From positions 6,432,001 to 6,496,000 of the forward strand of contig CM000151.3 in assembly GCA_000004695.1 (NCBI GenBank): 64,000 nt of DNA, written 5' to 3'. Positions 41,640-42,960 of this stretch are shown piece by piece. Numbering within the stretch: the first letter of the stretch is position 1; every line of letters begins with the position of its first letter. Below the pieces are notes generated by a model. That model was not told the origin of the DNA and searched no databases. It worked only from the letters and a program-made list of their open reading frames with translations. A program made the position numbers and the translations under genes. This DNA is from Dictyostelium discoideum (taxonomy: Eukaryota).

Positions 41640-42960
41640 ATAATAACACCACCACTGAGAAAAATTTTAACTTTAGCACTATAAGCCCCAACAGCCCAAA
41701 CAAAATTGTAAAAAAAATTATAAGGGCTGTGCGCAACACTTATGAGTGCTGTGCGGGCTGTGCTCAAAGTTTTTAATTTTGAGTACAGCCCTTACAAAAT
41801 TATTTTTTTAGATATTTAAATAAATAACCGTCTTTTTTTGAAACGGTTATTTATTTAAAGGTTTTTTTAGGATATACTTGGGATTAAATATTTTTAAAAA
41901 AAACCATCTATTTTTAAAAAAAAGTATTCAATAAAAAATAATAAAAATGAAATAATGCAATTTTATTTTATTTTTTTTTTTTTTTTTTTATTTATTTATT
42001 TATTTTTTTTTTAAAATGTGCTATATTAATATTATTAATTTGATTATTTTCAATTTCACTTTTTTGATTTAAACTCCTAAATATAAATGTAAAATTGTTA
42101 GTTATTACTTTAATTAAATTTTATTTTTTTTTAAAATTTACCATACATTACCTTAAAAAAAAAAAAAAAATTATCGTTATTTTTTATTTTATTGGTTTTC
42201 TCCTAAATATGAATGTAAAATAATTTATTTATTGATTAATAATACAAAACTTAAAATAATATGCAAAGTGATTTTTTATTTTAATTTCCAAGAAAATAAA
42301 AATTAATAATAAAAAATACTACATTTTTTCAGGTTTTTTTTTTTTTTTTTTGCAAAGTCTCAAACAATATATTCATATTTTCTTATTAAATATATTTTAT
42401 TTTTTTAAATACATTTAAAAAAGTAAATTAAAAAATTGTAATGTTTCTATCCTTTTTTTATTGTTTTTATTTTTTTTTTTTAAATTTTTTTTAAAAAAAA
42501 CCTTTTTATAAGTCTGTGTAGTCCTTTTTTATTTTAAAAAAATAATTTGTAGCCAATGTGATATTTTTTTTTTTTTTTAAAAAAAAACTTGAGATGTGTA
42601 GTCAGTTTTAAAAATTTAAAACCTTATTATTGCCCATTTTAAAAAAAAAAACCTTTTGGAATCTTTGCATTCAATTTATTTTTTTTTAAAAAAAAAAAAA
42701 AACCTTGTGGCCAGCCCTTGTAGTACATTTTTTTTAAAAAAAAAAATACCTTGTATCAGCCCGGTTAGCACTAATAGTCCATTTTTTTTTAAAAAAAAAT
42801 ACCTTTTATTAGTCCGGTTGGCACGAATAGACCGTTCAGCCCATATAGTCCATTTTTTTTTTTTAAGGGCTGTCCGGCTATTCGTGCCAACCGGGTTAAT
42901 ACAAGCCCTTCTAAGCGATCATGGCTTGTTCGTGGATAACTGCACTATATTTTAAAATTC
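41640..42960. other. Unusual GC-containing non-coding block, made of (i) a region with nested inverted repeats and a perfect 10-bp hairpin, and (ii) an array of about 8 short units each framed as A(n)-ACCTT...TAGTMCAT-T(n), ending in a 17-bp perfect inverted repeat.
   Basis: 41806-41850 'aaataaccgtctttttttgaaacggttattt' is a 10-bp stem. 41700-41800 holds 'ataagggctgt...acagcccttacaa' inverted repeats. 42812-42830 'ccggttggcacgaatag' and 42865-42883 'ctattcgtgccaaccgg' form a perfect inverted repeat. Units at 42488-42860 each end in a T-run. Confidence 0.5.

Follow-up and report, generated by a model that had tools for sequence, protein, structure and literature searches.

The 1.3-kb block at 41640-42960 lies in the spacer of a convergent tRNA-Ser/tRNA-Leu pair on D. 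discoideum chromosome 2, where two nested TRE3 copies adjoin it. Its sequence features are real and non-random, as documented by a census of inverted repeats, the enrichment of the CAGCCC motif and the distribution of the unit-end motifs within the window, i.e. the entire 64 kb of DNA analysed. The explanation that we favour, and to which we give about an even chance, is that the block is non-functional, D. discoideum-specific repeat debris generated by local tandem and inverted duplication, possibly of mobile-element origin. Judged by sequence criteria, its identity as a class I RNA locus is refuted.

The left boundary of the inter-tRNA spacer is formed by a tRNA-Ser(UGA) gene (41009-41086, + strand) detected by ARAGORN and by the Rfam tRNA model with 55.7 bits. 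At the right boundary, a tRNA-Leu(CAA) gene (50159-50239, - strand; ARAGORN, Rfam) converges on tRNA-Ser. A full-length TRE3-type non-LTR retrotransposon (44783-50075, - strand) comprises ORF1 (48611-49864) and ORF2 (44907-48611), the latter with endonuclease and reverse-transcriptase domains. It begins ~85 bp downstream of tRNA-Leu in the orientation of that gene. As a rule, TRE3 elements point in the direction of the tRNA gene that they target and are located 40-150 bp downstream of it (PMC5911963). The second copy (43936-44782, - strand) is a 5'-truncated TRE3-type fragment. It is 98.9% identical to the 3'-terminal 850 nt of its full-length neighbour, and its poly(A) tail is visible as a T-run at 43936-43962. 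APE/RT/zinc-finger ORF2 remnants, 3' poly(A), orientation and distance all agree with TRE3 for these neighbours at 43936-50075. A sequence-only reading of this region had placed the block between a tRNA gene on one side and retrotransposon copies on the other, which is correct. The two nested TRE3 copies downstream of tRNA-Leu indicate that the spacer is a tolerated dumping ground for insertions.

Protein-coding signals were sought in and around the block. An ORF-like stretch on the - strand (42952-43482), which abuts the long palindrome described below at its end, comprises 176 codons in one frame with six internal stops, the last 69 codons being open, and may form one unit with the block. 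No homologue was found among 5.8 billion + 1.84 billion proteins, AX4 proteins included. The single match of the 69 open codons against the 1.84 billion representatives was a low-complexity repeat protein and was discarded as spurious. A chimeric query composed of the ORF-like stretch, the array ORF and the island-1 ORF yielded no match at E <=0.01, and for a 99-aa ORF spanning the unit array no record exists. None of the three frames on the minus strand of 41087-43945 contains a transposase or other Pfam domain. In a second, annotated D. discoideum assembly, no gene model covers the block.

The GC content of the block is 30% at 41660-41860, 38% at 42701-42950 and 12% in the low-GC spacer between these islands (41861-42480). 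An intergenic GC content of 38% is unusual in this genome and suggests a recent arrival or some constraint, which would speak against debris. Each island carries four CAGCCC cores in mixed orientation. Eight of the 11 CAGCCC hexamers in the window are found within 41692-42872, compared to an expectation of 2.5 for the whole window. GC island 1 (41677-41800), with its cores in the orientation + - - +, is built of nested palindromes: TAAGGGCTGT (41721-41730) pairs with ACAGCCCTTA (41785-41794), and GGGCTGTGCTCAAAG...TTTGAGTACAGCCC is present at 41755-41791. The latter palindrome had not been noticed before. It is surrounded by a pair for which two perfect arms ATAAGGGCTGT had been reported; the pair is real, but it matches in 10 of 11 positions only, the second arm reading ACAGCCCTTAC. 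Folding of 41660-41880 as DNA resulted in z = -5.5. An AT-rich perfect palindrome follows at 41815-41859. The 10-bp stem aaataaccgt/acggttattt described previously belongs to it and is actually longer, a perfect 17-bp stem TTTAAATAAATAACCGT (41815-41831) / ACGGTTATTTATTTAAA (41843-41859) with an 11-nt loop. Behind it, an inverted A7CCTTT unit start is located at 41858-41870 (- strand). The 12%-GC spacer contains an old tandem duplication of ~120-126 nt (~41998-42120 / 42118-42245), the copies of which are roughly 76-82% identical.

The most prominent structure is a long imperfect palindrome of 103 nt (42803-42905) with arms at 42803-42842 and 42867-42905 and a 24-nt loop. Its perfect 17-bp core stem had been recognized from the sequence and was confirmed: the 17-nt CCGGTTGGCACGAATAG is present at 42814-42830 (+) and 42878-42894 (-). 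A direct copy with two mismatches is found at 42761-42777, and the 64-kb window contains no further copy (expected 0.01). The palindrome is composed of the last array unit, U8, and an inverted copy of the unit core (42866-42915, - strand), whose reverse complement is CTTGTATTAACCCGGTTGGCACGAATAGCCGGACAGCCCTTAA. It is very stable on either strand, with folding z-scores of -7.5 as DNA and -8.4 as RNA. The minus-strand RNA of 42780-42925 folds with -58.9 kcal/mol (z = -8.4) and qualifies as a stable fold-back precursor of ~100 nt. Mismatches between the arms are uncompensated and merely break pairing. The perfect match of the 17-bp arms could mean selection for the stem instead of recency, which one sequence cannot separate; this is a second point against debris. 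In the whole 64 kb, three perfect GC-bearing inverted repeats (stem >=10 bp, >=4 G/C, loop <=80 nt) were counted, two of them inside the block, while shuffled sequences yield 0.34.

Between the spacer and the inverted copy, eight A(n)-core-T(n) units are arranged head-to-tail (42493-42865, + strand), as determined by alignment, TRF and motif counts against shuffles. They start at 42493 (U1), 42536 (U2), 42579 (U3), 42610 (U4), 42641 (U5), 42688 (U6), 42736 (U7) and 42791 (U8), and comprise ~31-75 nt including the runs. The fullest unit core reads TACCTTTTATTAGTCCGGTTGGCACGAATAGACCGTTCAGCCCATATAGTCCA. The previously reported number of about eight mini-units was right, but the motifs said to delimit each of them are less regular: A(4 or more)[T]ACCTT opens five of the eight units, and TAGT(C/A)C plus a T-run closes four. 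Compared with shuffled sequence, these start and end motifs are almost limited to the array within the window. TRF picked up no more than the final 2.1 copies (period 53, 85% matches). Degeneration is strong in the earlier units, and the alignment shows that identity drops with distance from the palindrome. Short relatives of the units (..ACAGCCCTTA..) also occur in GC island 1 in both orientations. Among U7, U8 and the inverted copy, five of six deviations from the three-way consensus are G/C-to-A/T changes.

A flanking gene is 100% identical to an AX4 protein, which identifies the window as D. discoideum. The block appears to be specific to D. discoideum among the genomes compared. tRNA-Ser(UGA) is conserved in all five related genomes, and the tRNA-Ser/tRNA-Leu pair in four of them, with spacers of 750 and 2586 bp in two D. 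cf. discoideum, 1222 bp in D. citrinum and 59 bp in D. firmibasis vs. 9072 bp here. In D. dimigraforme, tRNA-Ser alone was found, and the 2.9 kb downstream of it were examined. Neither CAGCCC/GGGCTG nor any match to 41087-43950 beyond low-complexity sequence is present in the corresponding intervals of these five genomes. The sequence-only reading had itself named a lack of conservation of the units in related species as an argument against its proposal, and exactly this was observed across the five Dictyostelium genomes. A second copy of the block was detected neither in the remaining 62.7 kb of the window nor in TE-rich D. discoideum loci (63 kb), sequence from relatives (110 kb) or D. discoideum chromosome text (400 kb). 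This sample comprises about 590 kb of D. discoideum DNA, which is only ~1.5% of the 34-Mb genome. In a second D. discoideum assembly, the block is identical save for homopolymer lengths, so that there is no polymorphism evidence for instability. Scans of metagenomes and prokaryotic genomes with CCGGTTRGCACKAATAG returned 98 loci, all of them chance matches extending over at most 29 nt. BLAST searches of phages and plasmids matched the spacer only, by AT-rich chance. The stem sequences were not found as strings in the literature.

How could such a block have originated? Eight direct units, the inverted copy, the island-1 units and the spacer duplication together imply that the whole stretch was built from local duplications. 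We infer both the duplication mechanism and the neutrality of the block. A GC-containing unit of ~55 nt with the core ...CCTTGTATTAGCCCGGTTGGCACGAATAG.CCG..CAGCCCTTATAGTCCA, bordered by an A-run and a T-run and perhaps derived from a mobile element, would have been copied locally several times, head-to-tail as well as inverted. The long T(n)A(n) junctions, which are homopolymeric and palindromic, are likely substrates both of replication slippage or unequal exchange, which would yield tandem copies, and of fold-back template switching, which would yield inverted ones. The hairpins would then be by-products of inverted copies and not selected structures. Subsequently, the strongly AT-biased mutation of this genome would have eroded the copies until those far from the palindrome became nearly unrecognisable. 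The differences between copies, mostly GC-to-AT, fit neutral decay. The negative class I and Rfam searches, the lack of a unit fold and of a consensus structure, and the absence of a gene model leave no gene-like signal.

Two RNA-based explanations have to be weighed against local duplication. The first was proposed by the sequence-only reading: The block would consist of clustered class-I-like small RNA genes, or pseudogenes, transcribed by Pol III. Every A(n)-ACCTT...TAGTCCA-T(n) unit would then correspond to one gene terminating at its T-run. This is extremely improbable. Class I RNAs are abundant 42-65-nt RNAs found across dictyostelids; a 6-bp stem joins their 5' and 3' ends, they start with a 5' G, end with CUG(U) and have an 11-nt motif next to the 5' stem, and a DUSE (WCCCATAA) is located ~60 nt upstream of the start or of a TGTG box (PMC7919456). 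A T-run does follow each unit of the block, and the unit start, an A-run plus CCTT, is similar to the 3' portion ...AAAACCUUCGUCAACUG of genuine class I RNAs, which accounts for six weak partial matches in the array to a covariance model. For this search, which had been suggested for the locus, 26 curated D. discoideum class I RNAs served to build the model, and filters were turned off. The best scores in 41640-42960 (12.6, 12.4, 12.1, 11.4, 10.5, 10.3 and 9.9 bits) are all partial. Matches reach at most 12.7 bits and cover model positions ~14-50, i.e. the T-run/A-run and CCUU part. None of those in the block includes paired positions, and the 6-bp terminal stem is missing. The published thresholds are >=25 bits, or >=15 bits combined with a correctly placed DUSE (PMC7919456). 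Rfam searches at gathering and at permissive thresholds (E up to 10) detected only tRNAs plus noise and no family match in the block. The alleged class I core CCTTACAGCAA does not occur in the block within two mismatches. The same holds for the 11-nt motif CCUUACAGCAA in 41000-43900, and its total of 10 in the window is compatible with the 10.6 expected by chance. A DUSE had also been suspected upstream. Using the motif from the MEME output of PMC7919456, WCCCAYAA was counted three and WMCCAYAA 27 times in the window and not once in 41000-43900, the block included. No B box was found in the block. When the unit cores were folded, as had also been suggested, they proved unstructured (z between -1.2 and +1.7), and their alignment revealed neither consensus pairs nor a shared structure. 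Finally, the block is missing from the syntenic locus in related genomes. The second explanation assumes a young, species-specific hairpin-RNA locus: As for miRNA genes born from inverted duplications, the 103-nt palindrome or the island-1 palindromes might give rise to a fold-back RNA that is processed by the Dicer-like DrnB/RbdB machinery into 21-nt small RNAs. This would be consistent with the stability of the palindrome on either strand, its perfect 17-bp core and its intergenic position, which is shared by most D. discoideum miRNA loci (PMC6161686). Moreover, thug-S-derived hairpins give rise to miRNAs in this organism (PMC4894637). We consider the model conceivable, though unlikely. The hairpin is conserved in none of the five related genomes, two miRNA surveys (PMC6161686 and PMC4894637) do not list the sequences of its arms in their supplementary tables, none of the 13 listed miRNAs matches the block within four mismatches, Rfam contributes no credible miRNA family, and the substitutions between the arms are uncompensated. 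Slightly less probable still is the specific version in which the palindrome at 42803-42905 is a newborn D. discoideum-specific gene for DrnB-dependent 21-nt RNAs with its decaying parental array still beside it.

A mobile element is the third alternative. The block might be a decayed MITE-like non-autonomous DNA transposon of ~1.25 kb (roughly 41684-42941), or else a piece of a known D. discoideum complex repeat such as DDT, Tdd, thug, Skipper-2 or another TRE subfamily. In this case, the GC islands would be subterminal, with a short protein-binding motif (core CAGCCCTTA) occurring in both orientations on either side of an AT-rich interior, as in hAT or CACTA elements. We regard this as possible, but doubtful. 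The layout fits, since islands of 200-250 bp, each with its four CAGCCC cores in mixed orientation, enclose the 12%-GC interior. Both borders of the block display the 8-nt direct repeat GCACTATA, at 41676-41683 (+; longer form TAACTTTAGCACTATA, 41668-41683) and at 42942-42949 (+; longer form TAACTGCACTATA, 42937-42949), as read from the sequence. hAT target duplications have 8 bp. The repeat could be a candidate target-site duplication, albeit a weak one that was spotted after the fact and might be due to chance. Presence in D. discoideum only, of the genomes compared, and a tRNA-flanked zone already hit by TRE3 insertions are also compatible with transposition. In D. discoideum, DNA transposons account for ~1.5% of the genome; how they are expressed and controlled has not yet received detailed study (PMC5633606). 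On the other hand, no second copy was found in the D. discoideum DNA sampled, ~1.5% of the genome. Convincing terminal inverted repeats are lacking: When the left end was aligned locally with the reverse-complemented right end, the islands matched over unit motifs of 16-28 nt only, and there is little agreement between the putative termini AGCCCCAACAGCC and AGTTATCCACGAACAAGCC. Likewise, the minus-strand frames of 41087-43945 are devoid of transposase or Pfam domains, and the adjacent ORF-like stretch has no homologue in the proteins searched. The head-to-tail gradient of decaying units resembles a minisatellite more than subterminal binding sites.

Several more specific origins were tried and rejected. 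Derivation from TRE3 5' UTR repeats (shared CTTGTATC) was dismissed after the local alignment score equalled the shuffle mean, and derivation from repeats in the tRNA-Leu 5' flank (shared TACCTTTT) failed likewise when local alignments were compared with shuffles. Kinship of the right border to a MITE-like element at 40190-40735 is limited to a 26-nt AT-only match outside the terminal repeats of this element. An old minus-strand TRE3 extending from 43935 to 41173 and ending in a T71 run was considered too. It was rejected: reverse-transcriptase remnants are missing, the GC content is 20%, and decay of this extent is at odds with perfect GC-rich stems. For a Skipper-2 copy with a polypurine tract at 41250-41540, no integrase, reverse-transcriptase or chromodomain remnant was found.

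As it stands, the block matters little for biology, and its main use is that of a worked negative. In a 78%-AT genome such as this, hairpins that bear GC and units bounded by T-runs can, if located near tRNA genes, mimic Pol III small-RNA clusters. In addition, the locus illustrates how an inter-tRNA spacer of 59-2586 bp in relatives has grown to 9 kb in D. discoideum by stacked TRE3 copies and lineage-specific repeat DNA. Should the unit turn out to be dispersed genome-wide, the poorly characterised set of D. discoideum DNA transposons would gain a small hairpin-forming member. Small-RNA reads mapping to the palindrome would make it a case of miRNA birth in Amoebozoa through inverted duplication.

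The block was also compared with several known systems. With class I RNAs (DdR-21 family) it shares the AT-rich setting, a 'AAAACCUU' stretch and a downstream T-run, and the size of its units with runs overlaps the class I range. It differs from them by the lack of the 6-bp terminal stem, the GUUGAC start, the CUG(U) end, the 11-nt motif, and a DUSE or TGTG box at ~60 nt, as well as by covariance scores far below threshold. Furthermore, class I loci exist in all dictyostelids, whereas the block is not conserved. Like the miRNA loci mir-1176, mir-1177, mir-7097 and those derived from thug-S, it contains a long, stable intergenic hairpin of ~100 nt that is a potential Dicer substrate; however, it matches no published miRNA, and its hairpin simply consists of two copies of a local repeat unit. 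Like MITEs and other non-autonomous DNA transposons whose repeats cluster subterminally (hAT/CACTA type), represented in D. discoideum by the poorly characterised DDT, Tdd and thug families, it shows GC-richer ends with a motif in both orientations, an AT-rich interior, a length of ~1.25 kb, an 8-nt border repeat, hairpin-forming potential and presence in one species. In contrast to them, the block has no further copy in the sampled DNA, no terminal inverted repeats and no coding capacity. As to tRNA-targeted retroelement debris (TRE3, Skipper-2/DGLT-P), the block adjoins two TRE3 copies and its GC content is mobile-element-like. Nevertheless, it shows no similarity to TRE3, be it the copies of the window or those at three other loci, and contains no reverse-transcriptase or integrase remnants, and a minus-strand poly(A)-ended element beside tRNA-Ser would have the wrong orientation for a TRE3 targeting that gene. 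Minisatellite-type arrays with an adjacent inverted duplication are likewise arranged head-to-tail, here with a period of ~31-75 nt and identity decaying along the array. The inverted copy abuts the best-preserved unit, the boundaries are slippage-prone homopolymer runs, and the block is confined to one locus in one species as far as sampled. It deviates from such arrays in that internal deletions have made its units very unequal in length, the core motif recurs in mixed orientation in a second island 1 kb away, and its best units have 38% GC, far above the local background.

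The window comes from the nuclear genome (chromosome 2) of Dictyostelium discoideum; its open reading frame at 37384-38784 (minus strand) is 100% identical to an AX4 'ZZ-type zinc finger-containing protein'. To the right of this gene, tRNA-Ser(UGA) (41009-41086, plus strand) and tRNA-Leu(CAA) (50159-50239, minus strand) converge on a spacer that contains the block under study (41640-42960). Most of the features that the sequence-only reading described in this block are real. Proposed as a 17-bp stem, the sequence CCGGTTGGCACGAATAG indeed has a single exact occurrence per strand (42814-42830 and 42878-42894). 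A direct copy with two mismatches is located at 42761, and the 64-kb window has no further copies (0.01 expected). The stem is the core of a longer imperfect palindrome (arms 42803-42842 and 42867-42905, 24-nt loop) with folding z-scores of -7.5 for DNA and -8.4 for RNA. A second stem had been given as 10 bp; it exists, but is a perfect 17-bp stem (41815-41831/41843-41859). The pair TAAGGGCTGT/ACAGCCCTTA could be located at 41721-41730/41785-41794 and encloses an additional palindrome (41755-41791). When perfect inverted repeats were counted over the whole window (stems of 10 bp or more with four or more G/C, loops of up to 80 nt), three were obtained, two of them in the block; composition-matched shuffles gave 0.34. 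Likewise, eight of the 11 CAGCCC hexamers of the window lie within 41692-42872 (whole-window expectation 2.5). Two GC islands (41660-41860 with 30% GC, 42701-42950 with 38% GC) are separated by a spacer with 12% GC. The first island carries shorter versions of the unit core (..ACAGCCCTTA..) in both orientations.

The array itself comprises eight A(n)-core-T(n) segments (42493-42865). Their number agrees with the 'eight mini-units' reported before, but the start motif A(4 or more)[T]ACCTT is present in five and the end motif, TAGT(C/A)C followed by a T-run, in four of them. Hardly any instance of either motif lies elsewhere in the window. Good preservation is limited to the last two units (period 53, 85% matches), the others being increasingly degenerate. 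An inverted copy of an array unit at 42866-42915 had been overlooked; it is this copy that creates the large hairpin.

The units had been interpreted as a possible cluster of class I RNA genes, a family of small Dictyostelium ncRNAs. An Rfam search returned tRNAs only, even at E values up to 10. Since Rfam may lack a class I family, a covariance model was built from an alignment of 26 RNAs of typical length, chosen among 37 curated D. discoideum class I RNAs (supplement of PMC7919456). The model includes the 6-bp terminal stem and was run over the whole window with filters off. The best array matches reached at most 12.6 bits, below the published thresholds of at least 25 bits, or at least 15 bits combined with a correctly placed Dictyostelium upstream sequence element (DUSE) (PMC7919456). 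They span only model positions ~14-50, i.e. the variable loop and the 'AAAAAAACCUU' stretch, which the T(n)A(n)CCTT sequence at the boundaries between units mimics; stem and 11-nt motif are absent from all of them. The 11-nt motif does not occur in the block even with two mismatches allowed. The DUSE, WCCCATAA in the MEME output of the class I study (PMC7919456), is missing from the block in both its strict and a relaxed form, so that the DUSE-like sequence suggested upstream of the units could not be substantiated. Neither a B box in the block, nor a stable fold of the unit cores, nor a consensus structure in the unit alignment was detected. Together, these results refute the class I reading on sequence grounds, and we regard such a cluster as extremely improbable.

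The syntenic locus, reached via a flanking gene, was compared in six genomes, a second D. discoideum assembly and five relatives. The second assembly is 99.7% identical over 36000-45715, and over 41000-44000 it differs in two homopolymer lengths only. The tRNA-Ser/tRNA-Leu pair is kept in two 'D. cf. discoideum' genomes (spacers of 750 and 2586 bp), D. citrinum (1222 bp) and D. firmibasis (59 bp), compared to 9072 bp in AX4. In D. dimigraforme, tRNA-Ser alone was found and 2.9 kb downstream of it were examined. The intervals of the five relatives contain zero copies of CAGCCC/GGGCTG and, apart from low-complexity sequence, no match to 41087-43950. As no trace of it is found there, the block is, judged from these genomes, specific to D. 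discoideum. The expectation of conserved RNA genes was thus disappointed; lack of conservation in related species had been named beforehand as evidence against it. The inter-tRNA spacer is very plastic across species. In D. firmibasis (locus 8080-8305), the two closely spaced tRNA genes are co-oriented, with tRNA-Leu inverted compared to the other species, and the 2.6-kb spacer of one D. cf. discoideum (locus 5354-7939) appears to hold two small paralogous genes with introns, arranged divergently.

What, then, is the block? We lean, at about even chances, towards locally amplified, decaying repeat debris. Local duplications extend across the entire stretch: the unit array, the inverted copy, the mixed-orientation cores in the first island and an older tandem duplication of ~123 nt in the AT-rich spacer. 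The three best copies (the last two units, U7 and U8, plus their inverted counterpart) deviate from their consensus at six positions, five of which are G/C-to-A/T changes, and mismatches in the palindrome arms are uncompensated; both observations are expected of sequence that decays neutrally in an AT-biased genome. T(n)A(n) junctions delimit all units, each junction being a homopolymer prone to slippage and, at the same time, a short palindrome. Based on this anatomy, the tandem copies would have arisen where such junctions slipped or exchanged unequally, and the inverted copy by fold-back template switching. The GC-rich unit may well derive from a mobile element. It appears unlikely, though less so than the remaining alternative, that the block as a whole is the decayed copy of a non-autonomous DNA transposon or a piece of an already known D. 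discoideum repeat. An 8-nt direct repeat, GCACTATA, spotted post hoc, flanks the block (41676-41683 and 42942-42949) and could be a target-site duplication. However, an alignment of the two islands shows no terminal inverted repeats, and no copy of the GC-bearing parts was found in the remainder of the window, in 63 kb from three other transposon-rich D. discoideum loci, in 110 kb from relatives or in the initial 400 kb of a D. discoideum chromosome text (line-wrapped). Metagenome and prokaryote collections scanned for patterns, and phage and plasmid sequences searched by BLAST, yielded chance matches only. The transposon alternative is unsupported so far. A young hairpin-RNA locus is improbable; the sequences of the palindrome arms are absent from two published miRNA data sets. 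As it stands, the block appears to be an ordinary one.

Other repeats were observed in the window. A MITE-like element of ~545 bp (40190-40735) upstream of tRNA-Ser has inverted repeats of ~70 nt or more at its ends (AAAYTGGACCTWTCWGTGRATAATTGAATTAATT...AAAGATCGAGTT; alignment score 99); its right end and the adjacent sequence (40726-40822) match one D. cf. discoideum locus at 87.6%. The interval from the ZZ/UBX gene to tRNA-Ser contains a tandem ~88-nt pair (39728-39929, ~80% identity, 114-nt spacing; AATGAATCAATACYAATCAAATG...GGAAAGATTTATC...). A 110-nt tandem duplication (50204-50410, 91% identity) directly upstream of tRNA-Leu(CAA) has units with copies of the first ~36 nt of the tRNA gene and its 5' flank, resulting in several partial tRNA-Leu 5' halves. 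Two minus-strand ORFs of 552 aa each (18283-19941 and 22072-23730), 3.8 kb apart, look like the product of a gene recently duplicated in tandem, as they have motif positions in common (CAGCCC at the same offset).

Without its retrotransposons, the D. discoideum spacer amounts to ~2.9 kb. From tRNA-Ser, it consists of the tRNA flank, an A21 and a T71 run (41137-41243, at 50-160 bp from the tRNA gene on its downstream side), 290 bp of repeated polypyrimidine units resembling TTCCTTTATTTCCTC (41250-41540), the block and an ORF-like stretch. In the second D. discoideum assembly, the T71 run is shorter by 18 nt. Read on the minus strand, the polypyrimidine repeat is a long polypurine tract and recalls the one that precedes a 3' LTR, but no remnant of an LTR element was detected. 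The ORF-like stretch (43482-42952, minus strand) ends at the palindrome and has 176 codons in a single frame with six in-frame stops (five TAA, one TGA) and no frameshift, the final 69 codons being open. It has no homologue among 5.8 billion or 1.84 billion proteins and no Pfam domain, and the annotation of the second assembly contains no gene model for it. To the right, two elements are arranged head-to-tail downstream of tRNA-Leu (43936-50075), a full-length non-LTR retrotransposon and an 850-bp 3' fragment. The full-length copy (minus strand; ORF1 48611-49864, ORF2 44907-48611 with reverse-transcriptase and endonuclease domains) terminates in a poly(A) tail visible as a T-run (44783-44803). 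Its 5' UTR carries a 37-nt tandem duplication (AAAAAACCGTACCGCGATCAAGAGGATACAAGATACG, ~50000-50075). The 5'-truncated second copy (43936-44782) is 98.9% identical to it. The full-length element starts ~85 bp downstream of tRNA-Leu and shares its orientation. Such a placement, downstream of a tRNA gene in the orientation of the tRNA, is the published signature of TRE3 (PMC5911963). By position and orientation, the neighbouring retrotransposons are TRE3-type, and the context initially recognized, with a tRNA gene on one side and retrotransposon copies on the other, is therefore correct.
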